From positions 1,262-65,261 of the forward strand of contig JADZBP010000098.1 in NCBI GenBank assembly GCA_020852055.1: DNA of 64,000 nucleotides, given 5' to 3'. Made by a program: the position numbers and the translations under genes. Of the stretch, positions 13,456 to 62,558 are shown in pieces. Every line of letters starts with the position of its first letter. Position 1 is the stretch's first letter. This DNA is from Candidatus Latescibacterota bacterium. Lineage in GTDB: Bacteria > Latescibacterota > UBA2968 > UBA8231. The notes below the pieces were generated by a model that worked only from the letters and a program-made list of their open reading frames with translations, was not told the DNA's origin and did no database searches.

Positions 13456-13465
13456 TCGGGTGGCG

Positions 13466-14782: not shown

Positions 14783-14881
14783 ACTCGCGCATCTTTGCAC
14801 AAGGAGGTCATATCGTCTATGAGAGCGCAGCAATTTTCCACGCAGTACCTTTTTCCTATCCCCTCAAAGAAAGGACGTACT

Positions 14882-15499
14882 ATGCGTACATCCACCCGTT
14901 TCACCAAGTTGTTCCTGGTCTGCAGCATCGCTGCTGCCAGTGTCGTGGCCTATGGCTGCGGTGGTAAGCCGATGCAGCAGGCGATGCAGGGCGAGATGGA
15001 CAAGGCCAAGGCCGATGCCGAAGCCAAGGCCAAGGCCGAAGCCGAGCGGATGAAGGCCGAAGCCGAAGCCAAGGCCCGCAAGGCCAAGGAAGACATGGAA
15101 GCCAAGCTGAAGGGTGATGCCGATGCCGAGGCCCGCATGAAGGCCGAAGCTGCCGCCCGCGCTGCCCGCACCTACGAGACCACCTATTTCGATTACGACA
15201 AGTCCAATATCCGCGACGACCAGAAGGCGGGGCTCACCCAGAACGCCGACAAGCTGAAGGGCAATGCGGATATCAAGGCGACGGTCGAGGGTCATTGCGA
15301 CGAGCGCGGCACCGCCGAGTACAATATCGCCCTGGGCCAGAAGCGCGCCGAGAGCGCCAAGTCCTTCCTGGTCAAGGCTGGCGTCGCCGCCGACCGTCTC
15401 AAGACCGTCAGCCTGGGCAAGGAACGTCCCGCCGACGCCGGCCACACCGAGGCTGCCTGGGCCAAGAACCGGCGCGTCGAGATCGTCGCGGCTCCTTAA
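14882..15499 (+). CDS. pal: peptidoglycan-associated lipoprotein Pal (OmpA family)
   Basis: It starts at the ATG at 14882 and has a lipobox (VVAYGCGG). A Lys/Ala/Glu-rich linker is followed by an OmpA_C domain (VEGHCDERGTAEYNIALGQKRAESAK...NRRVEIV). Confidence 0.92.
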   Translation: MRTSTRFTKLFLVCSIAAASVVAYGCGGKPMQQAMQGEMDKAKADAEAKAKAEAERMKAEAEAKARKAKEDMEAKLKGDADAEARMKAEAAARAARTYETTYFDYDKSNIRDDQKAGLTQNADKLKGNADIKATVEGHCDERGTAEYNIALGQKRAESAKSFLVKAGVAADRLKTVSLGKERPADAGHTEAAWAKNRRVEIVAAP

Positions 15500-15507
15500 G
15501 ACCTCCG

Positions 15508-16296
15508 ATGCGTTTCAGCCTCCTGCTCCTGGGGTTGGCCTGTCTGGGCGCAACGGGTTGCGCCCAGCAGGTCACCCTCAAAAAAATGCGCCTGGAAAAC
15601 CAGGAGATGGCCAGGCAGATAACCGCCCTGGACAGCCTCCTGCGCGTCCGCGAGGTCGAAGGTGAGCGGCGGTGGATCGAAGGGTCCACCGACAACGACG
15701 ACCTCAAGCGGCAGGTGCAGCAGGTGCAGGATCGGCTCGACAACGTCGCCAGGCGGCTAGCCGACCTGGCCAAGGATCTGGAGTCCCTTCGTTTATCCAG
15801 CGGCAGCAAGGGGCGCCCCTCCGCGGGGCGCCCCCCTGTCGCCGCCCCTGATACCGCCAAATCCCCGCAACAGGCGCTGCTCCTGGCCGACCCTCAGGAG
15901 TTGTACAACCTGGCCTACAAGGACATGGAGGCCGGCAACTACGCCCTGGCCATTGCCGAGTTCTCCCAGGTCCTCGACAATTTTCCGCAAAGCCAGTTGA
16001 GCGACAACGCCTGCTACTGGCTGGGCGAGTGTTATTACGCGCAGAAGGATTTCCCCAAAGCCGCCGAGATGTTTCAGCGCTTGTTGAAAGAGTACCCTCA
16101 GGGCGAGAAGGTGCCCGGCGCCCTGCTCAAGCTGGGATATTCCCTGGCCGAACAGAAGGACCAGGTCAAGGCCGCTGCCGCCCCGCTGCGCGAGGTGATC
16201 GAGAAATTTCCTGACGCGCCAGAAGCCAAACTGGCCAAAGAAAAACTCAAGGCCCTCGGCCCACCCGGCAAACCGGCGGCGGGCAAGCGCCGGTGA
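15508..16296 (+). CDS. cpoB: Tol-Pal system protein YbgF/CpoB (coiled coil + TPR)
   Basis: It starts at the ATG at 15508 with a lipoprotein-type signal (LACLGATGCAQ). A coiled coil is followed by the YbgF TPR block (YNLAYKDMEAGNYALAIAEFSQVLDNFPQSQLSDNACYWLGECYY). Confidence 0.88.
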   Translation: MRFSLLLLGLACLGATGCAQQVTLKKMRLENQEMARQITALDSLLRVREVEGERRWIEGSTDNDDLKRQVQQVQDRLDNVARRLADLAKDLESLRLSSGSKGRPSAGRPPVAAPDTAKSPQQALLLADPQELYNLAYKDMEAGNYALAIAEFSQVLDNFPQSQLSDNACYWLGECYYAQKDFPKAAEMFQRLLKEYPQGEKVPGALLKLGYSLAEQKDQVKAAAAPLREVIEKFPDAPEAKLAKEKLKALGPPGKPAAGKRR

Positions 16297-16907
16297 GCGA
16301 GGCCGGCGGGAGGGAGTTCATCCTGCGGGCGCGCAAAGCCCCCACCTCTCCCGTGTTCTCCCTGGACGACCTGGCCCGGGCCGGCCATCTGGAAATCGTG
16401 GCCCACTGCGTGGCCAATGCCCTGTTCATTTCCGGGCAGATCCGGCCCGCCATCGCGGTTCATCTCGTCCTCGAAGGGGCTCCGGCCCCGCCCCGGACCA
16501 TCCGGCTGGAGAGCGATACCCTCTGTTCCCTGGGTGGCTTCGACGAGCGCTCCATCTGCCAACTGGTGCAGCAGGCGCTGAAGGTCGGCCGCGACCTGAA
16601 ACTGGGCGAGGAACTGCGGGTGGACAGCGGGGTCTACATCGCCAAACGGAGTTTTGAACAGCTGGTCCGCGAGAAAAGCACCGCCGCGCCGCTGTACTAC
16701 CTGCAGCCGCGGGGAGAGGATATACGCGCCGTGGAGTTTTCGCTGCCAGCGGCCTTTGTGTTCTCCGACCACCTGTCCATGCCCAAGAAAACCGACAAGT
16801 ACCTGGCCCGTCTGGGCGCCCGCCCGCTCTCGGTGGGACCCCGGCGGCTCTTTGCCTCGCAGTGTATCGTGCTGGTCCACAATGAGCTGGACCGGCAGCG
16901 GCGGTGA
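16293..16907 (+). CDS. TrmY-like SPOUT methyltransferase (DUF358 / tRNA pseudouridine-N1 methyltransferase family)
   Basis: 204 aa with a GTG start overlapping the cpoB stop (GTGA). By eye it is collinear with my recollection of archaeal TrmY (quoted from memory, not aligned). The matching blocks are REFILRA..., FSLDDL..AG.L, CV.NALFIS..IR, FVFSDH and LSVGPRRLFASQCIVLVHNELDR. Confidence 0.7.
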   Translation: MSEAGGREFILRARKAPTSPVFSLDDLARAGHLEIVAHCVANALFISGQIRPAIAVHLVLEGAPAPPRTIRLESDTLCSLGGFDERSICQLVQQALKVGRDLKLGEELRVDSGVYIAKRSFEQLVREKSTAAPLYYLQPRGEDIRAVEFSLPAAFVFSDHLSMPKKTDKYLARLGARPLSVGPRRLFASQCIVLVHNELDRQRR

Positions 16908-16929
16908 ACTCCCCATCCGGAGGCGCTCC

Positions 16930-17226
16930 ATGCTGGGCAATCTCTCCATCATCAGTTCGGGATTGGCGCTGAGCCAGCAGCGGCTGGAGGCGTCGGCACA
17001 CAATACCGCCAACCTCAATACCCGGCCTTCGGCTGCCCTGCGCGTCGAAGCAGGCGAAGGGGCCCAGGGGGGAGTCGAGGGGACGGTGGTCGCCGGCGAG
17101 GGGCCGTCCAGTCCGGTGGTCGAGAGTGTGGAGCAGATCGCGGTCACCTACCAGGTCGTCGCCCTGAAAAAAGCACTGCAGACCCAGTCGGAGATGGTGG
17201 GCCGGTTGTTGGATCTGGAAGCCTGA
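16930..17226 (+). CDS. 98-aa flagellar-rod-like mini-protein (FlgB/FlgC-type N- and C-terminal helices only)
   Basis: The ATG at 16930 is preceded by GGAGG. The N-terminus LSIISSGLALSQQRLEASAHNTANLNT matches the rod-protein signature (..ANxxT). The C-terminus VEQIAVTYQVVALKKALQTQSEMVGRLLDL resembles the rod/hook C-terminal helix. There is no central domain. Confidence 0.55.
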   Translation: MLGNLSIISSGLALSQQRLEASAHNTANLNTRPSAALRVEAGEGAQGGVEGTVVAGEGPSSPVVESVEQIAVTYQVVALKKALQTQSEMVGRLLDLEA

Positions 17227-17238
17227 GACCCGGGAGCC

Positions 17239-18000
17239 ATGTTCAAAGGCAGGCGTTTCACCCTGTTGTTCATCCCCGAAGAGGGGGACCGGACCCTGGA
17301 ATACAAGCTGTCCCGGGGCGCCTTGTGGTTCTGGCTCTCGCTGGCCGGGGTGGTCGTGGTGCTGGTGCTGACCGGGCTGCGCTCCACCGCGGAGATGTAC
17401 CGCCTCGAAAAGAAGGTGGCGCGCCTCGAAAAGGAGAAGGAGTCCCTGGGCGAGCAGATGGACCAAATCGCCGAACTCGAGCAGGTGCTCCTGCGCCTCC
17501 AGCGCAGCAACCGGCAGTTACACATCATCCTGGGCGAGGGCAACGCGTTGGAGGCAGCTTCCCTGCCCGACGTCGAGCATACCGGGGTCGATCAGTACGT
17601 CTCCTCCCTCGACCGGCTGCGCTGGGGCCGGCTGCGTTCGTTGCCCAGCCTGTGGCCGGTGAGCGGGGTGGTGAAGCGCCCCTTCAGCCCCGACTTCCAG
17701 GCAGTGCTGATCGCCGCCCCGCCCCAGAGCCTGGTGCGGGCCAGCGCCGCCGGCCTGGTGGTGAAGGCCACCTTCGACGAGCGCCTGGGGCACCTGGTGG
17801 TGCTGGACCACGGCAACGGGCTGACCAGTGAATACGGCTACAATCAGATGCTGCTGGTCAAACAGGGGCAGCAGATCCAGAAGGGCCAACCCCTGGCTCT
17901 GTCGGGCCGTTCCGGTGCGGCCGAAAGCCCGGGGCTGTATTATGCCGTGATCGAAAACGGCCGCCGCCGCGATCCCCAACGCTATCGGTTGTGGCTGTGA
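17239..18000 (+). CDS. membrane-anchored coiled-coil protein with degenerate LytM (M23) domain (EnvC/NlpD-like, predicted non-catalytic)
   Basis: 253 aa with a TM helix (ALWFWLSLAGVVVVLVLTGL) and a coiled coil. The M23 fold is recognisable (HLVVLDHGNGLTSEYGYN...GQPLALSGRSG). The Zn ligands are missing: the HxxxD region reads FQAVLIAAP, and HLHFE reads GLYYAVIE. Confidence 0.8.
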   Translation: MFKGRRFTLLFIPEEGDRTLEYKLSRGALWFWLSLAGVVVVLVLTGLRSTAEMYRLEKKVARLEKEKESLGEQMDQIAELEQVLLRLQRSNRQLHIILGEGNALEAASLPDVEHTGVDQYVSSLDRLRWGRLRSLPSLWPVSGVVKRPFSPDFQAVLIAAPPQSLVRASAAGLVVKATFDERLGHLVVLDHGNGLTSEYGYNQMLLVKQGQQIQKGQPLALSGRSGAAESPGLYYAVIENGRRRDPQRYRLWL

Positions 18001-18353
18001 GCGCGGGACGCGAACCCAGGGAGAGCGGCACCGGTCACACGGTGATCGGCCGGGGCACGGTGCTGGAAGGGGTGCTCAAGATGGAGCACAGCCTGCGCAT
18101 CGAGGGGGTGGTGAAGGGCGAGTTGGTCGCCGCCAATTCCCTGGTGGTCAGCGCTCAAGGAGAGTTGGAGGCCGGCCTCATCGAGGTGGGGGAGGCGGTG
18201 ATCAGCGGCAGGGTGGTGGGCAAACTGCGGGCGCGGGTGCGGGTTTATGTATCGGCCGGGGCCGTATTCCACGGCAGCGTGGAGACGCCCCAACTGGTCA
18301 TCGAGGAAGGGGCGGTGTTTGTGCAGTCGCTCCCCACCGGCAAGGGCGGCTGA
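17991..18353 (+). CDS. bactofilin (DUF583 polymer-forming cytoskeletal protein)
   Basis: 120 aa with a GTG start that overlaps the LytM-gene stop. It shows the typical beta-helical repeat (IGRGTVLEGVLKMEHSLRIEGVVKGELVAANSLVVSAQGELEAGLIEVGEAVISGRVVGKL...VETPQLVIEEGAVF). Confidence 0.88.
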   Translation: MAVSAGREPRESGTGHTVIGRGTVLEGVLKMEHSLRIEGVVKGELVAANSLVVSAQGELEAGLIEVGEAVISGRVVGKLRARVRVYVSAGAVFHGSVETPQLVIEEGAVFVQSLPTGKGG

Positions 18354-18381
18354 ATCCCGAAAGCCGGCAAGCGAAAAAAAG

Positions 18382-18412
18382 AGGCGCGTGGCCCTTTGCG
18401 GACCACGCGCCT
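18382..18412. terminator. bidirectional intrinsic terminator between convergent bactofilin and groEL genes
   Basis: The stem aggcgcgtgg / ccacgcgcct is a perfect 10 bp. It is preceded by AAAAAAA and followed by TTTATT. Confidence 0.85.
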
Positions 18413-18442
18413 TTATTCGTTTACCGGGTCTGGTTCAGGGCA

Positions 18443-20080
<1,638 letters not shown>

Positions 20081-22279: not shown

Positions 22280-22762
22280 ATGGCCAAGAAACTGACCCAC
22301 CTCGACGCCCAAGGCCGGCTGCGCATGGTGGACGTGGGGGCTAAAAAACCGAGCCAGCGGCTGGCGCGGGTGCGGGGTGAGATCGTCATGAAGCCGGAGA
22401 CGGTGCAACTGATCGCGGCCAACAAGGTGGCCAAGGGCAATGTGCTGGAGGCGGCCCGGCTGGCCGGGATCATGGCGGCCAAACGCACCGGCGAGCTGAT
22501 CCCGCTCTGCCATACCCTCAACCTGACGGCTGTCGATATCGAGTTTGCGGTGGGCGAAGACCGGGTCCAGGTGGAGGTCCAGGCCCGCATCGCCGACCGC
22601 ACCGGGGTGGAGATGGAGGCCCTGGTGGGGGCCAGCGTCGCCCTGCTGACCATCTACGACATGTGCAAGGCCGTGGACCGGAGCATGGTGATTTCGCAGG
22701 TGCGGCTGGTGGAAAAGCGGGGCGGGAAGAGCGGGACTTACCTGCGGAACGAGGGCAGCTAG
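22280..22762 (+). CDS. moaC: cyclic pyranopterin monophosphate synthase MoaC
   Basis: MAKKLTHLD..GRLRMVDVG.K......A...G with KGNVLEAARLAGIMAAKRT.ELIPLCH and TGVEMEALVGASVALLTIYDMCKA. The RBS is GGAGGA. Confidence 0.95.
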   Translation: MAKKLTHLDAQGRLRMVDVGAKKPSQRLARVRGEIVMKPETVQLIAANKVAKGNVLEAARLAGIMAAKRTGELIPLCHTLNLTAVDIEFAVGEDRVQVEVQARIADRTGVEMEALVGASVALLTIYDMCKAVDRSMVISQVRLVEKRGGKSGTYLRNEGS

Positions 22763-23733
22763 GGCTTCTTTTTCTTGCCCGCCGGCTTGGCGGCGGCGGT
22801 GTCGGGCGGGGCGGGTACCTTGTCGACGAGCAGGATCTCGACCCGGCGGTTCTGGCGCCGGCCGGTCTCGCTGGCGTTGGCGGCCAGCGGGCGGGTGTCG
22901 CCGTAACCCCGGGTGTACATACGCGCCTTGGGGAGATGGTAGTACTCGTGCAGGTAGGTTTTGATGCGTTCGGCCCGCTGCAGCGAGAGGGCCATGGCCT
23001 GGCCTTTCTTGCCGCCGCTGTCGCTGTGGCCCTCGATGAGCACCGGGGCCTCGGGGAAGGCGCTGATGAAGCTGGCCATGTGGGCCAGCCGGTCTTCGAG
23101 GGCCTGGGAGATCAGAGGGGTCTCGCCTTCGAAGTGGACCGTCTCCAGGGTCACCAGTTTGGGCTGCAGTTCACAACTGCGGTCGAGGGGGTAGGGCTGG
23201 CGGGGGTCGAGCACGTTTTCGAGTTTGATCAGCCGCACCCAGGAGGTGTCGTGGCCGATGCTGTCCACCTGGACCAGGCCGATCACCAGGCCGCCGTTGA
23301 CCGCCGAGAAGATGCTGCCCGCCTGCACCCCGTCGCGGCTGCCGAGATTGGCCTTGGAGCGGCCGCGGCTGATGGCCACCTGGCGCTCGGTGGCTGAGGC
23401 GGGCACATAGGGCTGGACGATGCGGTAGCGGTTGACCGGGCGTTTGGGTGGGATGGTGTCGGGTTCGGCCTCGGCGCGGGCCCGGGATCTGGGTAGGGGG
23501 ACGAGCGCCGAGTCGGCCGGGGCCTTGGCGGTGTTGGCGGCGGTGCTGTCCTTGGCGAGATGGCCGCGCGTTTTGGCTGCCCGGGGGGAGCCGGCGTGGG
23601 TGGTGTCGGCGGGGGCCCCGTGCTCCTGCGGGTGGGGTGTGGCGGCCAGCAGCAGCAACCACCCCAGCAGCAGTGCCCATCCCTTGCAGATGCCCGGCCA
23701 TCGCGGGTGCCGGGTGCCGGGCGCCGGGGTCAT
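22759..23733 (-). CDS. OmpA-family (OmpA_C peptidoglycan-binding) envelope protein
   Basis: 324 aa with a signal/TM segment (WALLLGWLLLLAA). The C-terminal OmpA_C domain reads IEGHSDSGGKK..AMALSLQRAERIKTYL...GYGDTRPLA...RRQNRRVEILL. Its stop overlaps the moaC stop (CTAG). Confidence 0.85.
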   Translation of the reverse strand: MTPAPGTRHPRWPGICKGWALLLGWLLLLAATPHPQEHGAPADTTHAGSPRAAKTRGHLAKDSTAANTAKAPADSALVPLPRSRARAEAEPDTIPPKRPVNRYRIVQPYVPASATERQVAISRGRSKANLGSRDGVQAGSIFSAVNGGLVIGLVQVDSIGHDTSWVRLIKLENVLDPRQPYPLDRSCELQPKLVTLETVHFEGETPLISQALEDRLAHMASFISAFPEAPVLIEGHSDSGGKKGQAMALSLQRAERIKTYLHEYYHLPKARMYTRGYGDTRPLAANASETGRRQNRRVEILLVDKVPAPPDTAAAKPAGKKKKP

Positions 23734-52841: not shown

Positions 52842-52862
52842 GTCAGGCCGCTCTGGTTTCTG

Positions 52863-52898
52863 CCCCCTGTCCCGCAGTCGGTACAGGGGGTTTCTCTT
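52863..52898 (+). terminator. intrinsic terminator after glgC
   Basis: The stem ccccctgt / acaggggg is followed by TTTCTCTT. Confidence 0.7.
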
Positions 52899-52905
52899 GC
52901 CCGCC

Positions 52906-52934
52906 TTGACAGGTTCCAGTCCCGGCTGTATGAT
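52906..52934 (+). promoter_or_regulatory. consensus-like sigma70 promoter of the secretin operon
   Basis: TTGACA (52906-52911), a 17-nt spacer, then TATGAT (52929-52934). Confidence 0.7.
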
Positions 52935-52972
52935 GGGGCTGTTTCGCCCCCCTCCGAGGAGTGTTTTTGCCC

Positions 52973-55369
52973 ATGAGACGTGTATTGCCCTGGCTGCTGG
53001 GGCTGTGCTCTTGCATCGCCGCTGTCCAGGCCCAGGAGTCGGTGGGCACGGTGGTTTCGCCCTCCCGCTCGCTGACCAAGACCCGGGCGCTGCTCGACGC
53101 GGCCGACCTGCGGGTGCTCCTGCCGCTGGGGTACGCGGTCCAGCCCGAAGCCCCTGGCCTGCTGGCGGGGCGGCCCGGGGTGCTGGAGGCGCGGGTCTAC
53201 ACCCGTCAGCAGGGAGTCCTCGAACTGGCCATCGCCACCGGGGCTGCCGGCGGTTACGACTTTATCCTCTATGGCGGGCGCGATCCGGCCGGCCTGGAGG
53301 AGGTGCGCCCGCGTTTCGTCGCCCTGGTCCAGGGCAGCCGCAGCGCCATGCCGGAGGCGGTGGAGGTGGGCTACCAGATGTACGGCCTGGGGCATATCGA
53401 AGCCGACCGCGCCCTGGCCCTGCTCAAGGCCCTGGGGTACAGCAGCATCGAGTTTGAGGCCAAGGCCGCCGCCCCGGAAAGCTACGAGGAGATCTTTGGC
53501 CTGGTCGCCGGCAAAGACAGCCGGCTGCCGCTGGTGGTCAAGGTGGCCAACGCCTCTAAGACCAGCCTGCTGGCCGCCGACGCCAAGGGCAAGGCCGCCG
53601 CCCCGACGATGGGGGCGACCAAAGGCATCGAGGGGGCGCCACAGTTGGGCGGTTCCCACCTGCACGGCACCACCTCCGACGAGCCGCAGGAGCGGTTGCT
53701 GATCGTCTACGACCGCAACGACCCCGAGGCCCTGGAACGCCTGATCAACCTGCTGCAGACCCAGATCGACGTGGCGGCGCAGCAGATCGTCATCGAGGCG
53801 CTGGTGATCGAGGTCAATACCAACCAGTTGCGCGACCTGGGGGTGCAGCTCAACGGTTCGCAGGGTCACGTAAAGACCAGTTTCGAGACCTCGGACAAGG
53901 GTCTGGATCTGCCCTTCACCTTCCTCTTCTCCCGCGACACCTTCTCCGACTTTCTCTCCTTCAAGGGGCGGCTGGAGGCGCTGGCCGAGAGCGGCAACGC
54001 CAAGATCCTCTCCAGCCCCTCGGTGCTGGTGATCAACGACCGCCAGGCCCGCATCCAGGTGGGGCAGCAGATCCCGGTGGTGCGCTCCACCACCACGGTC
54101 TCGACCACCACCAGTTCAGTGGAGTACTTCCCCATCGGCATCGTGCTCAACCTCCGTCCCCGCATCAACCCGGAGGGCTCGGAGGTGACGATGCAGATCG
54201 AGACCATCATCAGCTCCATCTCCCAGACCAACGCCCAGAGTGGCAGCAGTTCGCAGGTGGCCTTTGCCCCGGTGGTGGACAACCGCCAGGTGGAGACCTT
54301 TGTGCGGGTGGCCGACGGCACCCCTTTCATCATCGGCGGGTTGCTGTCCACCGACCAGCAGGGCCGCAAGGTAGGCCTGCCGCTCCTTTCAAATATCCCC
54401 TTCCTGGGCGCCCTGTTTTCGCGCCAGCATTTCGAGCAGGGACGGCGCGAGGTGATCGTGGTCATCACCCCCCACATCGTGCCCCTCGAAGACAACAGCT
54501 TCAGCTACCTGATCCCCAAGGATTCCCAGCTTTTCGACCGCTTCGACACCCAGCTCTTCCGCAACGCCTACCGGGTGCGCGACGACGAGGTGTGGGATCT
54601 CAAGTTCATCCAGGAAAGCCCGGTCTTGCAGGATTTGCTGCGGCGGGTGCGCCAGGCCTGCCAGGTAGATCTGATGCTGCGGCAGGACGAGCGGGTCAGT
54701 CCCTTGTTGGAGGGCCGCATCCCCGGGGCGGAGGTGCTGGTCCGGCGCATGCTGCGCGACATCGTCGGCAAGCTGGAGTTCGACGACGAGGTGGATCTGG
54801 ACAAGGTCTTCTTCTTTGTGCCCGCCGGCGACACCGCGCAGCAGGATACTCAGGAGGACAAGACCCTCAGCGAGGTGCTGGACCCGGTGTTCAAAAACCC
54901 CGGCCACGCGCTGCTGCTCCGTTTCGAGGCGCAGACCACGCTGCGCCCGGGGCGTCCCTTCACCTATCCGGTGGCGGCGCTGCGCGACACCCTGGTTCCC
55001 GACCAGGAGGAGGAACGGGCAAACCTGCTGCGCAGCCTCAACCCGGTGGACCCGGAGGGCCGGCCCCGGCAGTGGACCATCCTGCTGGCCGGCCCCGACG
55101 ACGTGAAGCACCTGCGCCAGGTGCTGATCCTCAAACGCCTGCTCGAACTCAACAGCCGCCTGCCCCTGACCCTGCAGGCCTTCCACCCCGGACTGCAGAT
55201 CCTCTTTCCCAGCCGCGAGGACATGCGCAGCCGCTACCATCTGGTCGACCGGGAGGTGGCCCAGCTTTTCTACGAGACGTCGCCCAACCAGTACTATCCG
55301 GCCTTCGAGCGGAATTTCAACCTGAAGCTGCGCGAGGTGGAGAAGGTGTTGGGACGGAGGGGGAATTAG
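52973..55369 (+). CDS. secretin-family outer-membrane channel protein with long uncharacterised C-terminal extension
   Basis: I take the ATG at 52973 (TTG 52967 and GTG 52961 are alternatives). The signal peptide is MRRVLPWLLGLCSCIAAVQA. The secretin N-domain reads LLIVYDRNDPEALERLINLLQTQIDVAAQQIVIEALVIEV. The secretin core reads AKILSSPSVLVINDRQARIQVGQQIPV...PVVDNRQVETFVRVADGTPFIIGGLLS...GLPLLSNIPFLGALF...VVITPHIV. About 300 further residues have no motif I recognise. Confidence 0.88.
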   Translation: MRRVLPWLLGLCSCIAAVQAQESVGTVVSPSRSLTKTRALLDAADLRVLLPLGYAVQPEAPGLLAGRPGVLEARVYTRQQGVLELAIATGAAGGYDFILYGGRDPAGLEEVRPRFVALVQGSRSAMPEAVEVGYQMYGLGHIEADRALALLKALGYSSIEFEAKAAAPESYEEIFGLVAGKDSRLPLVVKVANASKTSLLAADAKGKAAAPTMGATKGIEGAPQLGGSHLHGTTSDEPQERLLIVYDRNDPEALERLINLLQTQIDVAAQQIVIEALVIEVNTNQLRDLGVQLNGSQGHVKTSFETSDKGLDLPFTFLFSRDTFSDFLSFKGRLEALAESGNAKILSSPSVLVINDRQARIQVGQQIPVVRSTTTVSTTTSSVEYFPIGIVLNLRPRINPEGSEVTMQIETIISSISQTNAQSGSSSQVAFAPVVDNRQVETFVRVADGTPFIIGGLLSTDQQGRKVGLPLLSNIPFLGALFSRQHFEQGRREVIVVITPHIVPLEDNSFSYLIPKDSQLFDRFDTQLFRNAYRVRDDEVWDLKFIQESPVLQDLLRRVRQACQVDLMLRQDERVSPLLEGRIPGAEVLVRRMLRDIVGKLEFDDEVDLDKVFFFVPAGDTAQQDTQEDKTLSEVLDPVFKNPGHALLLRFEAQTTLRPGRPFTYPVAALRDTLVPDQEEERANLLRSLNPVDPEGRPRQWTILLAGPDDVKHLRQVLILKRLLELNSRLPLTLQAFHPGLQILFPSREDMRSRYHLVDREVAQLFYETSPNQYYPAFERNFNLKLREVEKVLGRRGN

Positions 55370-55372
55370 ACG

Positions 55373-55810
55373 ATGAATACGAGATGCCTGCTGCTGGCCG
55401 CCCTGCTGCTGGCCGGCTGCGACGAACCAGACAAGGCCGTGACCCGGGCCACTGCGGACGGCCGCTTGTCCCTGTCGCTGGAGGCCGAAAAAAACTGGCT
55501 GCACCCCGGCGAGATCCTGCCGGTGCGGGTGCGGGTGGAGAGCTTGGCCGGCCCGCTGGCGCACGGGCTGGTGGACACCCTCAAGTTCGTGGCCAACAAC
55601 GGCACCCTGGCCCCCGCACTGCTGGTGGTGGCTTTTGCCGGCACCGCCGACAGCGCCGCCGTCGGGGTGGAGCGGGTATACGAGAACTGGATCTATTTCG
55701 CCGCCTCCGCCCGGGCCACGCCGCAGAACCAGGGGGAGATCAACGCCCTCTTCCAGGACAGCCAGGCCCTGCTCAAGATCCGCATCACCCCGCCGGCCGA
55801 GTCGCTGTAA
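55373..55810 (+). CDS. small lipoprotein of unknown function (candidate secretin partner/pilotin)
   Basis: 145 aa, starting 3 nt after the secretin stop. It has a lipobox (LLLAGCDEP). I see no recognisable family. Confidence 0.7.
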   Translation: MNTRCLLLAALLLAGCDEPDKAVTRATADGRLSLSLEAEKNWLHPGEILPVRVRVESLAGPLAHGLVDTLKFVANNGTLAPALLVVAFAGTADSAAVGVERVYENWIYFAASARATPQNQGEINALFQDSQALLKIRITPPAESL

Positions 55811-56040
55811 GCCGCCCTTCTTCCACCCGGAGGAACTGACCAACCCTTCCGCATCAGCTGGCCTGCCTGCGCTTGCTCAGATACGCGTTAGTTGTGCCAG
55901 TCTGCAATCCTGTCTGGGCCGGCTGCCGAGCGGTATCCACTTCTCGTAAAAAAAGATGCCCCTCGTTTTTAATTTTCTCTCTCTCCCTGCATCTATACTA
56001 CCAGAAACGATAAGCAACCCCTGAACTGTCTGAGGCAGTA

Positions 56041-57891
56041 ATGGCTGTCCTTCCCGCAGAAGAAAGCCAGTTGGTCCTGTGGTGCCGCGAAGGCCGGGCT
56101 GAGGCTTTTGGACCGCTGGTGCGGCGCTACCAGAACGCGGCCTATGCTATTGCCTGGGGTTATGTGCGCAACCGCCAGGATGCCCAGGATCTCGTCCAGG
56201 AGGCCTTCATCGCCGCGTACTGCAAGCTGGGGCAGCTTCACCAGCCCGCCAAGTTTGGCAGTTGGCTCTACAGTATCGTGACCAGCCGCTGCAAGGAATG
56301 GCTCCGGCAGCGAAGGCGGATCTCCGGCAGTGTACACTCCCTGGAGACTGCTGATCAAGAATTGGCCCGGATTGCTCAAGTCGAGCAGGCGCGCTGCACC
56401 CTAAAAGAAGAGCTATGGGACAGCGTGGGCCGGCTTCCCGAACAATTCCGCACGGTCGTGCTGCTACACTACCTGAGTGGCTTGTCCTATGCAGAGATCA
56501 GCACCTTTCTGGAACTTCCCGTTTCGACGATTGTCGGCCGGCTGCAACAGAGCCGGATACGCCTGCGAGAAGCCCTTTTACCCGACGAATTGGAGGCCAT
56601 CGATATGAGCAAGGTGGATGTCAGCGTCCAAGTACAGGAGGCGGTGTACCAGATCGCCGTCGAGCCCGTAACACTGAGAATCCCACTGGCGAGAACACGG
56701 CGGCTGGTACTCTACTGCGGCCTGGATGTAGAGGTCGAGATCCGGCAGGCTGAAGGGGATGAGGTTCTGCTGGAGGGCACCAAGGCGGCCATCGGCGCCT
56801 CGCCGGAGGCCGCCAGGGCCAGTGCCGAAGGGATCGAGATCCTGTATGACCAGGTGGCAGATTTCGTAGAGGCTGGCCCCCACGCGGGAGAAGAATTTAC
56901 AGGGACCGACAACCAGGACAGCCGGCCTGTGGCGGGAATTGCCCCCACCGCAGACATCTGGAGCCAGTACCGACAGAATACAGGATGGCGGATCGATCGC
57001 GGTGCCGATACCATCGCGCTGTATCCCTTTATGGAGGATGTGTTGGAGGTCCTGCCGGCCCGGTTGTCTCCCGATCTGCAGCAGGTGACCCGGATTTCCG
57101 TGATTCGGAAAGTAGCAGAGGATATCATCCTACCTCGCGCAGCCTACACCCCCGAGATCCAGAAGGTGTTCAACCCCAACAACACCAGCGATGAACGAAT
57201 GCACGGGCCGGTGGGGTACCTCCACCTGACCCTTTCCATTCCCCCCGGCAGTACTCTGACCCTGGTCGGGGGCAAGAAGGTTCGCATCCACGACCTGCGC
57301 GCCTCCATCAACCTGATCTCATCGGGTGTCGAAGAATTAGCCCATCTTGAAGGAAACATCCGCTTATTAAATACCAACTTCAAAACCGCGAGCGATCTCA
57401 AGGGCAGCTTCTACCAGCGGTTCCACAGCTACTCCGGCACCAGTTGGGCTGGCTACCAAGCTAGTCGCTCAGAGACCTGGAGTTCTAAGATCGAAAAGGT
57501 CCAGGGAGAAGTGGAAATCGATGTGGGCAAGGTGGAGCTTGAGGTGGCTCACTTGAGTGGCAAGGTGTCTATCCGCAACCGCCACGGCAACACCCGCCTG
57601 TACCAGGGCCAGCTTCGACAGGAGGATCGTATCCACCTGGAGTCTTGCTCTGGGGAGATACGCCTGTTCTTACAAGAAGACCTCATCCCCCAAGCAAGTC
57701 TGATGGCCACCACCCTTTGTGGGGCAGTCAGATATGATAGCCTGCGGGATCTGGACGGCTTCAAGCAGGGAAACACGCTGCAGTTGATTGCCTTTGGAGT
57801 GCCCGCCGGGTTGTCCTGGGAGGAGTTGCACGATGCCAATTTCCATCTCAAGACCGAGAGCGGGGATATCACTATCGAAAAGACGAAGTGA
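56041..57891 (+). CDS. ECF (group IV) sigma-70 factor fused to an about 430-aa C-terminal DUF4097-like beta-helix domain, no TM segment
   Basis: Region 2 reads FGPLVRRYQNAAYAIAWGYVRNRQDAQDLVQEAFIAAY...SWLYSIVTSRCKEWLR. Region 4 reads LPEQFRTVVLLHYLSGLSYAEISTFLELPVSTIVGRLQQSRIRLREAL. The C-terminus carries repeated SG.[IV].[IL] strands (SGKVSI, SGEIRL, SGDITI), as in DUF4097/putative-adhesin domains. Confidence 0.85.
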   Translation: MAVLPAEESQLVLWCREGRAEAFGPLVRRYQNAAYAIAWGYVRNRQDAQDLVQEAFIAAYCKLGQLHQPAKFGSWLYSIVTSRCKEWLRQRRRISGSVHSLETADQELARIAQVEQARCTLKEELWDSVGRLPEQFRTVVLLHYLSGLSYAEISTFLELPVSTIVGRLQQSRIRLREALLPDELEAIDMSKVDVSVQVQEAVYQIAVEPVTLRIPLARTRRLVLYCGLDVEVEIRQAEGDEVLLEGTKAAIGASPEAARASAEGIEILYDQVADFVEAGPHAGEEFTGTDNQDSRPVAGIAPTADIWSQYRQNTGWRIDRGADTIALYPFMEDVLEVLPARLSPDLQQVTRISVIRKVAEDIILPRAAYTPEIQKVFNPNNTSDERMHGPVGYLHLTLSIPPGSTLTLVGGKKVRIHDLRASINLISSGVEELAHLEGNIRLLNTNFKTASDLKGSFYQRFHSYSGTSWAGYQASRSETWSSKIEKVQGEVEIDVGKVELEVAHLSGKVSIRNRHGNTRLYQGQLRQEDRIHLESCSGEIRLFLQEDLIPQASLMATTLCGAVRYDSLRDLDGFKQGNTLQLIAFGVPAGLSWEELHDANFHLKTESGDITIEKTK

Positions 57892-57974
57892 GTCCCTTGG
57901 AGTGTTGTAGAGTGGCTTGGGGTATGGAACAGCTGGAAACCGGGTAGACCGACAGAGGGACGAGTGTGTCCAAA

Positions 57975-58012
57975 CCCCGCCGTCGGTAGCTCGACGGGGG
58001 GGTTTCTTTTTT
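57975..58012 (+). terminator. intrinsic terminator after the ECF-fusion gene
   Basis: The stem ccccgccgtcg / cgacggggggg has one mismatch and is followed by TTTCTTTTTT. Confidence 0.8.
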
Positions 58013-58101
58013 CACTGAACCTTGGTGCAGCGGCTAGTGTCGTACAAGTAGGGGTTCCACTATGGGTTTTGTCGAGCCTCCACTTCAGCAAGGAGACGTA
58101 T

Positions 58102-60543
58102 ATGGCTAGGTGGTCTAATCGGGCGTGGTGGAGCGCGATGCTGTGGTGTATCTCTTCGGGACTGACCTCGCCCGCTCTTGCAGAGGAAGGAATGGTACCC
58201 AGGAGGACCATGTCGGCGGTGCGCGTGAATCCCACTCCTCCCAAGATCGATGGCGTGCTGGATGACGGGGTGTGGCAGTACGCACCCCGCTTCGGCGGTT
58301 TTACCCAGCGCATTCCTGACGAAGGGAAGCCGGCCACCGACTCCACCAGTGTCCAGTTCGTCTATGACGACAAAGCGCTTTACGCCGCGATCATGTGTTA
58401 CGATAAGGAACCGGGCAAGATTGCCACTCGGCTAGCTCGTAGAGATCAGTTTCCCTACAGCACTGACTGGGTTCACCTGAGTATCGACTCCAACCTCGAC
58501 CGTCAGACAGCCTATTCCTTCTTTTTAACCGCAGCCGGGGGGCTGCTGGACGGTTACTACTACAACGACGATTTGCAGGACTGGACCTGGGACGGGGTGT
58601 GGGAAGGACGCGCACACATCGGTGACCAGGGCTGGAATGCGGAGTTCAAAATCCCCTTCAGCATCCTGCGTTTCAGCCCCCAGGAAGAAAACGTCATGGG
58701 GGTCAATGTGGACCGCTTCACTACTCGCAGGAAGGAGAACGTTTTCTGGGCGTTTATCCCCGAAAAAGAGAAGGGATGGGTCTCTCGCTTTGGTGACCTG
58801 AGGGGGATCAAAGGCATTTCCCCGCCTAAGGCTCGGGAAATCCTACCCTATGCAATAGCCCGTTCTACCTTCGAGCCCAAGAACCCCTCGAACCCCAATG
58901 GCCGGGGCTCCTTCACCAACCTGGGTGTGGACATGCGTTATGGGTTGGCCTCCAACCTCTCTCTGAACGCTACCCTCAACCCAGACTTCGGGCAAGTGGA
59001 AGCAGACCCGGAAGTGCTAAACTTGTCGGTGTTCGAGACTTTCTACGAAGAACGCCGGCCATTTTTCGTGGAAGGCAATCAACTTTTCCAGACGCCTTTC
59101 CAGCTTTTTTATTCGCGGCGGATCGGCCGGCAGCCTGGGCGCATTGGCCTCCCTATAGGGTATACGGAGATCAGTAGGCCGGAATATACCAGTATCCTGG
59201 GGGCAGCCAAGCTGACGGGTAAGAGCGCGGGTAAGACCAGTTTTGGGTTGATCGAGGCGATCACTGGCGAGGAGCACGCCACCGGTCAGGCCGTGGGTCT
59301 GGGTGTGGATCGCCTCCTGGTGGAGCCCCGGACCAACTATCTGGTGGCCCGGTTACAACAAGATTTGCTCAAGGGGAACTCCAATATCGGGGTGCTGGCC
59401 ACGGCCACCAACCGCGCCCGTTCCGGGACCGCTTATGCCGGTGGAGTGGACTGGAACCTGTTTTGGCGCGAGAACACCTACCAAGTAGCCGGCCAGGTGG
59501 CTGGTAGTCGAACTGCGGATTTCGGGAAAAGCCACAGCGGGTATGCAGTACAGGCCGAACTGGGCAGGCCGGCAGGCCTAGTGCAGGGCAACCTCCGGTA
59601 CGAGGCGTTATCGCCGGGCTTCAATATCAATGACCTGGGTTTTGTTTCCCGTGTAGGCACCCAGACCCTACAGGTCTGGTTAGGTCCGAGGCAATACCAG
59701 CCCTGGGGACCCTTTCGCGAGCGGTACCTCGATGTGGACGCGAATCTAAGCTGGAATTACGACCACCTTGTATATAAGAAAGAACTGAGCATCAGTCCTT
59801 CTTTCGCGCTGAAGAACTACTGGTCCATCTGGGGTGGAATGTCTCACAAGTTCCAAACTTTGGACGACCTGGATACCCGAGGTGGGCCACCCATTGAGCA
59901 GCCTGCCAGTACCAGTACCTGGTTTGGTGTGCAAAGCGATAGACGCAAGCCCCTCGGCGGACAGTTTCGATTCAATTGGGCGCGCAATACGGAGGGCAGC
60001 ACTCGGCACTCGGTGAGCATAGAGGCCGAGGCGCGGCCTTCGACCCGGGTAGAACTGAGCCTTCAGCCAGGCTATACCTGGAATGACAACGATGCCCAAT
60101 GGGTGACGAACGTGGATGACGGCGACGACGGCACCCAGGACCACTTTGTCTACGGGGAGCTAAAGAGCCAGGTGTTTGAGGTGACAGGTCGCTGTAGTTG
60201 GGTTTTTGCCCGCGATCTGACCCTGCAGTTCTACCTACAGCCCTTCGTGGCCGTGGGAGACTATGGAAATATCAAGGAATTGGCCAGGGCCAAAAGCTAT
60301 GAGTTCACGCCCTACTCAGGCCTAACCAGCAACCCTAACTTCCGCCAGCGGTCGTTGCGCAGCAACCTGGTGTTGCGCTGGGAGTATCGGCCAGGGAGCA
60401 CCCTCTTTATGGTCTGGTCGCAGTCCCGGCAGGCCAGTGCCCAGGAGCCGGATCTGCGGCCCTATGCCAACTTGCGGAAAAGTTTTGCCGACGAGGGGAC
60501 GAATCTATTTCTGATGAAGCTGAACTACTGGATGAACATCTAA
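58102..60543 (+). CDS. CBM9-like + DUF5916-type outer-membrane protein
   Basis: The ATG at 58102 sits behind AAGGAG and gives a signal peptide (WWSAMLWCISSGLTSPALA). The N-terminal carbohydrate-binding-family-9-like pattern reads PPKIDGVLDDGVWQYAP...YDDKALYAAIMCYD...DWVHLSIDSNLDRQTAYSFF...GWNAEFKIPFSILRF. A long beta-rich C-terminus ends in an aromatic-rich terminal strand (KLNYWMNI). Confidence 0.75.
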   Translation: MARWSNRAWWSAMLWCISSGLTSPALAEEGMVPRRTMSAVRVNPTPPKIDGVLDDGVWQYAPRFGGFTQRIPDEGKPATDSTSVQFVYDDKALYAAIMCYDKEPGKIATRLARRDQFPYSTDWVHLSIDSNLDRQTAYSFFLTAAGGLLDGYYYNDDLQDWTWDGVWEGRAHIGDQGWNAEFKIPFSILRFSPQEENVMGVNVDRFTTRRKENVFWAFIPEKEKGWVSRFGDLRGIKGISPPKAREILPYAIARSTFEPKNPSNPNGRGSFTNLGVDMRYGLASNLSLNATLNPDFGQVEADPEVLNLSVFETFYEERRPFFVEGNQLFQTPFQLFYSRRIGRQPGRIGLPIGYTEISRPEYTSILGAAKLTGKSAGKTSFGLIEAITGEEHATGQAVGLGVDRLLVEPRTNYLVARLQQDLLKGNSNIGVLATATNRARSGTAYAGGVDWNLFWRENTYQVAGQVAGSRTADFGKSHSGYAVQAELGRPAGLVQGNLRYEALSPGFNINDLGFVSRVGTQTLQVWLGPRQYQPWGPFRERYLDVDANLSWNYDHLVYKKELSISPSFALKNYWSIWGGMSHKFQTLDDLDTRGGPPIEQPASTSTWFGVQSDRRKPLGGQFRFNWARNTEGSTRHSVSIEAEARPSTRVELSLQPGYTWNDNDAQWVTNVDDGDDGTQDHFVYGELKSQVFEVTGRCSWVFARDLTLQFYLQPFVAVGDYGNIKELARAKSYEFTPYSGLTSNPNFRQRSLRSNLVLRWEYRPGSTLFMVWSQSRQASAQEPDLRPYANLRKSFADEGTNLFLMKLNYWMNI

Positions 60544-60723
60544 CCCTTTTCTCTGCGGAAAGTCTATGGACACCAGTTTTCGCGCTGAGATCCGGAGATG
60601 TCTGACGGAGACCGGGAGCCTTTATGCGCTGATCCTAGTCTTGGTCGGGCTGTACTTCCTGCTCGGGAATGCACAGGTACTATTCTCCTGCAACCCGACT
60701 TTCTCTAAAAACTCAGCGTTATA

Positions 60724-61854
60724 CCAATTGCCACACTTGGTGTCATAAAATCTGAATCAGAGTTCATCGAGCGAATCACAAATCCACTGCCATCCAGCTA
60801 GCGATCTGACTTGATCTGGATTAGCCGCCAGTAGCCGTAGTTCATGCTCAACCACTGCCATCTTGGCGGTCAGCGTGCCATAGACTTTTCCTTCGACGGT
60901 CGCACGCAGATGTTCGAAGATGCGTTCTGCGGGATTCAACTCTGGGGAATGCGGCGGTTGTTCGATGCGCTTGACCTTCAGCCCGGTATAGGCCTCTCCA
61001 CGGTGGCCTCGCCCGCGATCCCAGACCAGTGTGCGTAGCCCGTGGCGTGCCCAGTTTCGGACTACCGGCGCCAACGTCACGCCTTTCAGGTTGGGGACCC
61101 AGGACCAACGTAGGGTCCCCCGCAAGGGATTGACCGTCAGCGCCAGGTACTGCCATTGATGGGTATACTCCAAATGGTTGGACAACTTTCACCCCGCGCG
61201 GTGCCCACACCCGACGCACTTGCCCGATCAGTCCCACCCGCATCTCATCCGCCCAGGCAATTCCCTGCACGGTGGTTACCCCCGCTGCTTGTAGCGCCCT
61301 GGTCAGGCCCCTTTTTTCCAGGCTCGTTGCTGGGTGCGGGAAGCCTTGGGATTACAGGATCGAGGCACCTTCTTCTTCAATTGAAGCCGTGCAAACACCC
61401 AGCGCATACCCCAATAGGTATAGGACACCCCCTCGGCGGCAGCCCAATGCACCCCATCCCAAACCGAACGGATTTCACCAGCGGCGGCTTTGGCAGTCAA
61501 GGCCGTTTCCTGGGTCGGACTCAAACGCCGGGCAGAGCAGCCATGACCGCCAACCGAATGCTTACCGACTTCTGCCAAGCCTCCTTTCCGATACCAACTT
61601 ACCCAGCGATGGAGCGTGCGGTAGCTCCGCCCCACAGTATCTGCCACTTCGCTCAACCCTTTACCCTGACGCAAAAGCATCAATGCCTGCAACCGGCTTC
61701 GTCGATGGTGGTCCCGTTCGCGACTATAATGCAGAGCTAGTTGCTTCCTACTATGCCGCCACGAGATGACCAAGGACCGTCCCATCAGTGCTGCCTCCTG
61801 AATTCTGCATACTCTCCCCGGAGCATAATTCATGACAGCAAAGATGACAATTGG
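60724..61854 (-). mobile_element. IS630-family insertion sequence (1131 bp) flanked by TA
   Basis: The imperfect terminal inverted repeats start CCAATTGCCACACTTGGTGTCAT (left, 60724 onward) and CCAATTGTCATCTTTGCTGTCAT (reverse complement of the right end, 61854 downward). TA lies immediately outside both ends (60722-23 and 61855-56). The interior encodes an IS630-type transposase. Confidence 0.85.
60757..61785 (-). pseudogene. IS630-family DDE transposase, reading frame interrupted twice
   Basis: The protein is spread over three ORFs. The N-terminal HTH ORF (61303-61833; MGRSLVISW... probably starts at 61785) comes first. A middle frame follows (...GIAWADEMRVGLIGQVRRVWAPRGVKVV). The C-terminal DDE part is last (YLALTVNPLRG...LVWDRGRGHRG...PPHSPELNPAERIF). 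The first shift coincides with A-AAA-AAG (61311-61317). The second, near 61185-61195, restores the original frame. Confidence 0.8.
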
Positions 61855-61963
61855 TACTAGCTGGTCCGTCGCTGAAATATGGCCGTATCCCTTGACGTCC
61901 TCGAAGCCCTCAAAACGGGACGCCGTAAATCAGGTAGGTGTAAACCTTAGGCCAATAGCCCAA

Positions 61964-61996
61964 AGCCGACTCTTTATGTGCAAGAGCCGGCTTTTC
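61964..61996 (+). terminator. terminator-like hairpin just right of the IS
   Basis: The stem agccgactctt / aagagccggct has one mismatch and is followed by TTTTCT. It probably served the DUF5916 transcription unit before the IS inserted. Confidence 0.5.
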
Positions 61997-62055
61997 TATG
62001 GTCTCCTCCTGAGATATATTAGCTTCTACAGCACTGCTTCTCCAAAGGAGGGGGG

Positions 62056-62256
62056 ATGTCCAGAGTCGATGAAATCAAGGCGGAGATCGAGCGTCTTCCC
62101 AACGAGGAGATTACCGAATTATTCCGCTGGCTTTCCGAGAAGGATTGGGAACATTGGGACCAGCAGATCGAAGCCGATGCACAGGCGGGGAGACTCGATT
62201 TCCTGATCCGAGAAGCACGCGATGAAAAGGCCAAGGGCAAGCTCCGGGATCTTTGA
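62056..62256 (+). CDS. small antitoxin-like protein (addiction-module component)
   Basis: 66 aa with RBS AAAGGAGGGGGG. The sequence is acidic and helical (EIKAEIERLPNEEITELFRWLSEKDWEHWDQQIEADAQAGRLDFLIREA). It overlaps the downstream toxin-like ORF. Confidence 0.65.
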   Translation: MSRVDEIKAEIERLPNEEITELFRWLSEKDWEHWDQQIEADAQAGRLDFLIREARDEKAKGKLRDL

Positions 62257-62509
62257 TGCACCGGAAACGGCCCGTTTCTGGGCTTGCCTTGCAGGACTTC
62301 CGGAAGAGATTCAGCAGGTAGCACACGAGAATTTTGCCCTGCTGAAGGCCAATCCACGCCATCCGTCACTGCAGCTTAAAAAGGTCGGCAAGTTCTGGTC
62401 AGCGAGGGCGGGCCTCCATCATCGCGCTCTGGCGGTCGAGGATGGCAGGGACTTCATCTGGGTGTGGATCGGACCTCACGACGAATACGAGCGGCTGATT
62501 AGGCAGTAG
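62222..62509 (+). CDS. ParE-like/RelE-superfamily type II toxin
   Basis: 95 aa. The pattern LP.EIQ....F.LLK.NP.HPSL..KKVG.FWS.R.G...RAL.V.....F.WVWIGPHDEYERL recalls the ParE-like toxin family (PF15781) as I remember it. The only in-frame start overlaps the antitoxin by 35 nt. Confidence 0.65.
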   Translation: MKRPRASSGIFDAPETARFWACLAGLPEEIQQVAHENFALLKANPRHPSLQLKKVGKFWSARAGLHHRALAVEDGRDFIWVWIGPHDEYERLIRQ

Positions 62510-62525
62510 ATCTGCCGAGACCGCT

Positions 62526-62550
62526 TCCGCCTGAACGGGCGGATTTTTTT
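62526..62550. terminator. hairpin + T7 between the toxin gene and the convergent regulator gene
   Basis: tccgcc-tgaacg-ggcgga is followed by TTTTTTT. Confidence 0.6.
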
Positions 62551-62558
62551 ACGCCTCC

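Follow-up and report, generated by a model that had tools for sequence, protein, structure and literature searches.

A Secretin Family With a C-Terminal Domain of Unknown Fold, a Coupled Lipoprotein and Recurrent Genetic Links to Inner-Membrane Transporters

A Secretin and a Lipoprotein in One Transcription Unit

We examined two adjacent genes, encoding a secretin and a small lipoprotein, in a 64,000-nucleotide stretch of a Candidatus Latescibacterota genome (assembly GCA_020852055.1, contig JADZBP010000098.1, positions 1,262 to 65,261 of the forward strand; hereafter the window). An earlier note on this DNA had described them as a module with its own promoter, lying between glgC and a low-GC island, and that layout stands (Table 1). 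The upstream gene is confirmed as glgC (match to PDB 5w5t, E = 3e-108), and the terminator claimed after it is present as a hairpin at 52862-52891 (-26.1 kcal/mol, z = -2.4 by RNA folding) followed by UUCUCUU, a structure that was overlooked by a consensus scan and that is not conserved in the aligned relatives L007 or L009. The promoter is as described earlier; sites of its quality occur twice in 5 kb against 0.5 expected. Across four related loci with 84-88% nucleotide identity to the window (L006-L009) its -35 element is invariant, its -10 element is largely conserved and the flanking spacer is variable, and the AGGAG of the ribosome-binding site and the secretin ATG are likewise kept. The secretin and lipoprotein genes form one transcription unit with its own conserved promoter, and both have a host-like G+C content at third codon positions (GC3; 0.90 and 0.91, respectively).

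The longest open reading frame (ORF) of the secretin runs from a GTG (52961..55369, 802 aa). The start is likely the ATG at 52973 rather than this GTG, because the ATG gives a protein that is 100% identical to P0001, a deposited 798-aa protein of a Candidatus Latescibacteria metagenome-assembled genome (MAG), and is preceded by the ribosome-binding site, both being conserved in relatives.

Table 1. Features of the secretin–lipoprotein locus (window positions).
Feature	Position	Strand	Basis and remarks
Terminator-like hairpin and U-rich tail	52862..52898	+	Read from sequence, RNA fold; 3' of the glgC stop codon
Sigma-70-like promoter, TTGACA-17-TATGAT	52906..52934	+	11/12 consensus positions
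Ribosome-binding site, GAGGAG	52956..52961	+	11 nt 5' of ATG 52973
Secretin gene, 798 aa from ATG	52973..55369	+	ORF scan, Pfam, protein identity
Signal peptide, MRRVLPWLLGLCSCIAAVQA followed by QE, signal peptidase I (SPase I) type	52973..53035	+	Read from translation; conserved in L006-L009
Family-specific N-terminal alpha/beta domain, residues ~24-124	53042..53344	+	AlphaFold2 (AF2), predicted local distance difference test (pLDDT) 77-89
Small beta-alpha-beta-alpha-beta domain	53366..53545	+	AF2 secondary structure, pLDDT 50-70
N3-like domain	53693..53977	+	Directly 5' of core; aligns to GspD N3
Secretin core PF00263, ending ...VVITPHIV	53978..54481	+	Pfam
C-terminal domain, 295 residues	54482..55366	+	Directly after PF00263 core, to protein end
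Lipoprotein gene, 145 aa, lipobox LLLAGC, beta-rich	55373..55810	+	ORF scan; starts 3 nt after secretin stop

The window protein is a member of the secretin superfamily PF00263. This is the sole Pfam domain detected in it, and the match spans residues 340-507 and profile positions 1-168 of 169 (E = 8.6e-44; 149.5 bits against a cut-off of 27.5), which, with the SPase I signal, bears out the original description of a secretin with a signal peptide and a full core ending in VVITPHIV. When a full-length model was compared with the PDB by Foldseek, all 35 matches with E < 0.001 were secretins and GspD was the best structural neighbour (E = 5e-12); confidence in the barrel is poor (pLDDT 62) because a monomer was modelled. 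Scores against the NCBIfam secretin equivalogs are all far under the cut-offs. The best models are GspD (TIGR02517; 169.6 bits against 351.35, with only residues 210-507 aligning), PilQ (TIGR02515; 132.5 bits against 284.35, core only, and with no AMIN domain in the window protein) and MshL, and the models for the type III secretion system (T3SS) component SctC, Tad RcpA/CpaC, MSHA MshL, HofQ and phage pIV also score well below their cut-offs, with no such gene context in the window.

A full-length profile of the family matches GspD, PilQ, pIV, RcpA, InvG and MxiD over profile positions ~217-517 only, and therefore the N-terminal ~190 and C-terminal ~290 residues are private to the family. The alignment to GspD covers N3 and the core, from about profile position 217, and the same comparison with the PDB detected no N0, N1 or N2 homology. 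Of the ring-building N-domain proposed before, the part that stands is the N3-like domain in front of the core. Further towards the N-terminus lies an alpha/beta domain for which a profile search found no sequence homology in the PDB; its fold has a weak and non-significant match to the Francisella lipoprotein Flpp3 (6pny, probability 0.94, E = 0.16). The small beta-alpha-beta-alpha-beta domain that follows it is, judging from the model, possibly a ring-building module.

A C-Terminal Domain Confined to Secretins

Beyond the core, the secretin carries an extension that the earlier note had put at about 300 uncharacterised residues. We find that this region is a real domain of unknown fold, confined to secretins, and that it defines a distinct family. 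Its 295 residues match nothing in Pfam or NCBIfam, a PDB profile search was empty at E <= 10, and Foldseek gave best values of E = 0.24 against the PDB (with template modelling scores <= 0.15) and E = 0.61 against BFVD; nor was there a match in phage or plasmid collections. The possibility that searches with hidden Markov models and Foldseek would reveal a well-known domain, which had been named as a ground for doubting the claim, has fallen away. A good AF2 model, computed from 13 sequences (pLDDT 81, predicted template modelling score 0.81), places an extended and highly conserved linker of 29 residues first, then a helical subdomain and then an alpha/beta subdomain.

Among 103 full-length homologues the C-terminal tail is as conserved as the core, with top-residue frequencies of 0.5-0.9 (0.9 at residues 501-550 and 0.8 at 726-775). 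A profile of the domain seeded by the window protein, searched against 1.84 billion cluster representatives (clusters at 50% identity), found it in 349 proteins, with E < 1e-30 for 161. In full-length matches it sits at the extreme C-terminus, and a secretin core is present in all 116 of the 116 carriers of at least 600 aa.

The family spans at least eight phyla and is found in Latescibacterota, Gemmatimonadota, Acidobacteriota, Marinimicrobia, Rhodothermales, Verrucomicrobia, Planctomycetota and some proteobacterial MAGs. Among its carriers are closed genomes, for example OZ244235.1 and OZ252100.1 (both Latescibacterota), CP066225.1 and that of Poriferisphaera corsica. Within the window's own clade (clade I, defined by a C-terminal domain score above 400 bits) the genes stand in the sequence citrate synthase, hibernation factor, pntAB, (glgC), secretin, lipoprotein, helix-turn-helix (HTH) regulator and gltBD, and this synteny across genomes argues for vertical inheritance. 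The secretin/lipoprotein pair is not peculiar to the window genome and belongs instead to a vertically inherited family with conserved synteny in several phyla.

The Partner Lipoprotein

The second gene proved to be what had been reported, a 145-aa lipoprotein of no recognisable family that starts 3 nt after the secretin. Apart from its lipobox it gave no significant match in Pfam, NCBIfam or the PDB sequences, neither to the pilotin families PulS/OutS, AspS, MxiM/YscW and PilF/PilW nor to others, and an alignment of relatives suggests a beta-rich domain of ~120 residues. Assignments to TssJ or EACC1 were rejected, as the sub-threshold matches cover the signal and lipobox region only.

In the whole of the window's clade, translation of the lipoprotein is coupled to that of the secretin. 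Its gene lies directly downstream in 86 of the 89 clade-I loci (36/38 + 50/51; the counts include duplicate loci of the same contig, namely L002/L012, L004/L018, L005/L073 and L014/L086), and the junction in relatives is usually a 4-nt ATGA overlap. The three loci without a downstream lipoprotein comprise two contig ends and one insertion sequence (IS) insertion. The Marinimicrobia loci instead have a lipoprotein gene directly upstream of the secretin, whose product shares the N-terminal motif, and in clade II, where the secretins mostly have SPase I signals, the lipoprotein gene may be present or absent. We also considered whether lipidated secretins and separate lipoproteins are complementary in their occurrence and dropped the idea, no clear pattern being seen. 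As with pilotins, the gene for this small lipoprotein stands beside that of its secretin, and by this analogy a role as a pilotin-like assembly or anchoring factor is plausible.

Some individual lipoprotein loci depart from the general picture. The locus with the IS insertion (L003:12431-14623) has adequate downstream sequence and no lipoprotein gene; the element, with HTH_Tnp_1 and rve transposase genes, lies ~0.7 kb after the secretin, has a second copy 5 kb further on and may have removed the lipoprotein gene. The lipoprotein at L002:12433-12873 (on the contig shared with L012) has a C-terminal half dissimilar to the rest of the family, with an Arg/Pro/Cys-rich tail, which suggests a frameshift or a misassembly in this long-read MAG. 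The residue at position +2 after the lipobox cysteine is aspartate in the window (C-D-E-P; 55388-55423) and serine or glycine in most relatives (C-S-E-P, C-G-E-E-P). By the Escherichia coli rule, aspartate at +2 favours inner-membrane retention, although this rule may not hold in Latescibacterota.

Transporters Rather Than Filament Machinery in Related Loci

Pfam scans of about 40 other genes of the window returned housekeeping functions, for example pntAB, glgC, GroEL, icd, mfd, SurA, TolB-like and OmpA-family genes, and no pilin, no part of a type II secretion system (T2SS), type IV pilus (T4P), Tad system or T3SS, no phage gene and no ABC (ATP-binding cassette) exporter, in agreement with the earlier statement that pilins, T3SS parts and phage genes are missing from the 64 kb. 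We extended this view to 157 related loci, taking about ±8-10 kb at each and applying a motif screen. No prepilin was found in them, a single ORF (in L041) has a Walker A box of the T2SS/T4P/Tad type, and none of the clusters of neighbouring ORFs common to at least eight loci represents pilus machinery. The pilMNOP and gsp genes are absent from these loci, as gspC-M are from the window, and no gene for a periplasmic binding protein, a nuclease or a ComEA-like protein recurs in the neighbourhoods. Within these neighbourhoods the family is without genetic linkage to T2SS, T4P, Tad, T3SS or phage genes.

What does recur is inner-membrane proteins of three kinds. The first has 900-1100 aa, 11-12 transmembrane (TM) segments, cytoplasmic HEAT repeats and a cyclic-nucleotide (cNMP)-binding domain, which may be part of the same chain or have a small gene of its own. 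Its membrane domain belongs to the TLC/NTT family of nucleotide carriers: Pfam TLC is matched by 13 of 16 members (E = 2e-11 at best), and in the PDB the ADP/ATP carrier 9j3n is matched (E = 1e-16). This NTT-like/HEAT/cNMP gene adjoins the secretin in 16 + 8 clade-II loci, where its order and orientation vary. In the clade-I loci L082, L084 and L087 the secretin, lipoprotein and NTT-like genes follow each other on one strand, with the HEAT and cNMP domains of the L087 partner confirmed by Pfam, and in clade-I locus L016 the beginning of an NTT-like gene is seen before the contig ends. Elsewhere the secretin is abutted by an MscS-type channel with a cNMP domain (L064 and L071), by a Popeye-like cNMP membrane protein (L063) or by other cNMP proteins (L040, L066 and L132), and most of the inner-membrane partners bear cyclic-nucleotide sensor domains. 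Pfam detects an AMIN domain in the relatives P0150 and P0160; the gene for P0150 (L077) adjoins an NTT-like/HEAT/cNMP gene, which is followed by a PilZ-GAF-PAS-cyclase gene. This same AMIN-bearing member lies downstream of genes for Wzy_C, polysaccharide deacetylase, Polysacc_synt_3 flippase-like and epimerase proteins (L077:1-9823 and 16585-18480), a context that, at this single locus, hints at an exopolysaccharide cargo and at local cNMP signalling.

In Phycisphaerae the association goes further, since an MsbA-like ABCB exporter (PF00664 + PF00005) and the secretin are joined in frame, with the exporter on the N-terminal side. The full fusion occurs in P0202, P0217 and P0221, and of the exporter an N-terminally truncated protein, P0228, still has the ATPase domain. 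The fusion is present in at least 120 clusters at 90% identity, with 37-74% identity to the protein of Poriferisphaera corsica (WP_200761202.1); the carriers include three isolates, namely this organism, Poriferisphaera sp. WC338 and strain AB-hyl4, as well as closed genomes. The fusion ORF is continuous in three loci (L074:10001-14533, L075:10001-14677 and L076:10001-14719), which have unrelated neighbours and hence no conserved gene beside the fusion. From the N-terminus, the order is ABC TM domain, ATPase, signal-peptide-like segment, secretin N-domains, core and C-terminal domain. The window secretin aligns to the C-terminal halves of the fusions from residue 137-210 to ~784-797 (E 1e-84 to 1e-97). 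Its N-terminal alpha/beta domain is missing from the fused relatives, in which the alignment starts at window residue 137 at the earliest; most of those tested align from about this residue and therefore share the small beta-alpha-beta-alpha-beta domain.

The fused exporters appear catalytically intact, with Walker A, signature motif and Walker B all kept in 120 of 121 fusions. Just after the ATPase domain, 117 of the 121 have a signal-like segment, in which a positive n-region and a hydrophobic core precede an AxA-type site (95 fusions) or a lipobox (22 fusions). Such an internal segment suggests passage of the secretin half into the periplasm and its probable release by signal peptidase, and the 22 fusions with a lipobox before the secretin half may be lipidated in the manner of liposecretins. 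The fusion looks like a natural inner-membrane/outer-membrane polyprotein. The idea that an ABC exporter beside unfused secretins is a general trait was rejected: L048 is the only strong case, at a distance of 7 kb, and a few other matches cover the ATPase domain alone, and ABC adjacency is therefore not general outside Phycisphaerae. No NTT-like/HEAT/cNMP, MscS-cNMP or ABC partner is present in the 64-kb window.

Wider Surroundings in the Window

Past ~55.9 kb the GC content falls from 0.65-0.69 to 0.55-0.59, as expected from the low-GC island reported beside the pair. The island (55812-62556) is an exact 6.7-kb insertion relative to L007-L009, whose gene order agrees with that of the window to its left and right, and it separates the stop codon of the lipoprotein gene from a gene for an HTH_24 regulator. 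Two of its products are an extracytoplasmic function (ECF) sigma factor with a fused DUF4097 "toastrack" domain (56041-57891) and, at 57964-60543, a DUF5916/CBM9 protein. Upstream in the window there are envelope genes for TolB-like (PD40 + TolB_N), CpoB/YbgF-like tetratricopeptide repeat and OmpA-family proteins (13379-17000 and 22759-23733), as well as M23 peptidase and bactofilin genes (17239-18353).

Interpretation

We propose, with a probability of roughly 0.5, that the pair serves a transporter-coupled envelope pathway that works without a filament, and that it is the gate of this pathway in the outer membrane. The secretin multimer would form a gated pore in the outer membrane, its C-terminal domains would build a periplasmic collar around the barrel, at the place of the short S-domain of GspD, and the lipoprotein would serve as a pilotin-like assembly or anchoring factor. 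An inner-membrane transporter, rather than a pilus piston, would move the substrate that crosses the outer membrane via the secretin pore, and transport would probably be outward and under cyclic-nucleotide control. The earlier suggestion of a self-contained device is unlikely, given that relatives link the secretin to NTT-like/HEAT/cNMP proteins, MscS-cNMP channels or fused ABC exporters; these links suggest that the inner-membrane partner and the energy source are elsewhere in the window genome, and the partner would accordingly be encoded outside the 64 kb.

Several points weigh against this proposal, for and against which the evidence is comparative genomics throughout. About 85 of the 89 clade-I loci, the window included, have no adjacent transporter, and the link to transporters rests on a minority of clade I and on other clades. 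The partners are of unlike kinds (a carrier of the major facilitator superfamily, or MFS, type, a channel and an ABC exporter) and indicate no single cargo or direction: NTT carriers usually import or exchange their substrates, PF00664 ABC proteins usually export and MscS channels release. The stoichiometry of an ABC dimer and a secretin ring of 12-15 subunits is awkward, the AMIN domain of some close relatives is peptidoglycan-binding and typical of PilQ, and the roles of collar and pilotin are suggested by position and analogy alone.

The main rival is that of an ordinary T4P, T2SS or DNA-uptake secretin encoded apart from its machine, with the C-terminal domain and the lipoprotein as lineage-specific assembly aids that substitute for PilF/TsaP or a pilotin. 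Secretin genes that stand apart from their systems do exist, the nearest solved relatives of the window protein are GspD and PilQ, the best NCBIfam models are those of GspD, PilQ and MshL, and P0150 and P0160 have AMIN domains as PilQ does. However, the scores of those models are far under the equivalog cut-offs, and the N0-N2 region, which contacts GspC or PilP, is undetected. The 157 loci are without pilMNOP, gsp or prepilin genes and yield a single PilB/GspE-type motif, an AMIN-bearing relative stands beside an NTT-like/HEAT/cNMP gene and a cyclase rather than pil genes, and the same family is fused to ABC exporters. Because of the missing N0-N2 domains, the contexts of relatives and the ABC fusions, we regard this explanation as unlikely. 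The pore might alternatively work inward, as an uptake gate for a large hydrophilic nutrient (nucleotides, oligonucleotides or fragments of extracellular DNA) that feeds an NTT-type importer, the ABC partners then being exporter-fold importers. This would suit the commonest partner, a homologue of NTT/TLC carriers that import or exchange nucleotides, and there is precedent in that PilQ-type secretins admit DNA in competence and exporter-fold ABC importers exist. We doubt it nonetheless, as the MscS-type partners release solutes, PF00664 proteins are overwhelmingly exporters and the models matched here are of the exporter type only, and genes for binding proteins, nucleases or ComEA-like proteins do not recur nearby.

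A ring that conducts nothing, acting as a structural or signalling element of the envelope (an outer membrane-peptidoglycan anchor or scaffold) with cNMP neighbours that merely regulate it, appears quite improbable. Housekeeping synteny (pntAB, glgC, gltBD) and vertical inheritance do suggest a constitutive envelope role, and some relatives have peptidoglycan-binding AMIN domains, but the full core is strongly conserved, gate-forming region included, and in-frame fusion to ABC exporters with intact catalytic motifs would be hard to explain without transport. As for a remnant of a filamentous-phage pIV-like secretin or of a mobile-element gene, which the adjoining 6.7-kb low-GC insertion might bring to mind, the insertion starts beyond the lipoprotein stop, and relatives that have the pair do not have it; its boundary and the empty phage and plasmid searches with the C-terminal domain effectively refute such an origin, and the host-like GC3 of 0.90 and the synteny across phyla also speak against it.

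Returning to the transporter-coupled gate, a broader and more tentative proposition is that secretins with this C-terminal domain constitute an unrecognised class of filament-independent trans-envelope transport, of which the window pair would be the Latescibacterota version. In such a class, an NTT-like/HEAT/cNMP carrier, an MscS-cNMP channel or an ABC exporter would supply substrate and control in place of a pilus or needle, and the ABC exporter would be made as one precursor with its secretin and separated from it by signal peptidase. If true, this would be a new route across the outer membrane, in which a secretin is wired to carriers, channels and ABC exporters with apparent cyclic-nucleotide sensing, and the "orphan GspD" annotations of Latescibacterota, Gemmatimonadota, Acidobacteriota, Marinimicrobia and Planctomycetota would have an explanation. 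The family in any case yields a domain for which neither the PDB nor BFVD holds a detectable structural relative, and the natural ABC-secretin polyprotein offers an experimental handle, with cultured Poriferisphaera strains making the idea directly testable.

Comparison With Known Systems

Every secretin studied to date works for a filament or needle machine (T2SS, T4P, Tad, competence or T3SS) or in the export of filamentous phage (reviewed in PMC6668835), and the reference survey of systems with secretins names type IV filament systems, T3SS and filamentous phages alone (PMC6668835). The literature that we searched contains nothing on a secretin with this domain or on ABC-secretin fusions, and no report of NTT/TLC or bCNG proteins working with an outer-membrane secretin.

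The closest known protein over N3 and the core is GspD (for example PDB 6i1x, 5wln and 5zdh; profile E = 6.5e-26). Something follows the barrel at the C-terminus of the window secretin, as the S-domain does in GspD; that S-domain has only tens of residues, whereas the appendage described here has ~290 and is of unknown fold. The window protein also differs from GspD in being without N0-N2 homology and without a gsp operon. PilQ shares the secretin core, and its AMIN domain is found in some family members (P0150 and P0160), but the pilMNOP context is missing here and PilQ has no such C-terminal domain. Pilotins and liposecretins (PulS/AspS, MxiM/YscW and PilF; HxcQ and BfpB) offer the parallel of a small lipoprotein encoded beside its secretin and co-translated with it; unlike them, the window lipoprotein has no sequence relationship to any pilotin family.

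As a working analogy we consider type I secretion (ABC exporter, adaptor and TolC), the common trait being the genetic coupling of an ABCB-type exporter with a channel of the outer membrane, without a filament. The differences are that the channel here is a secretin and not TolC, that no membrane-fusion protein was seen and that in Phycisphaerae both halves are one polypeptide. NTT/TLC nucleotide transporters and bCNG (MscS-cNMP) channels are homologous to the other partner proteins, although the NTT-like partner has HEAT repeats and a cNMP domain in addition. Set against these systems, the secretin of this family is new in its architecture and in its partners, and there is a substantial chance that the system to which it belongs is a new class.

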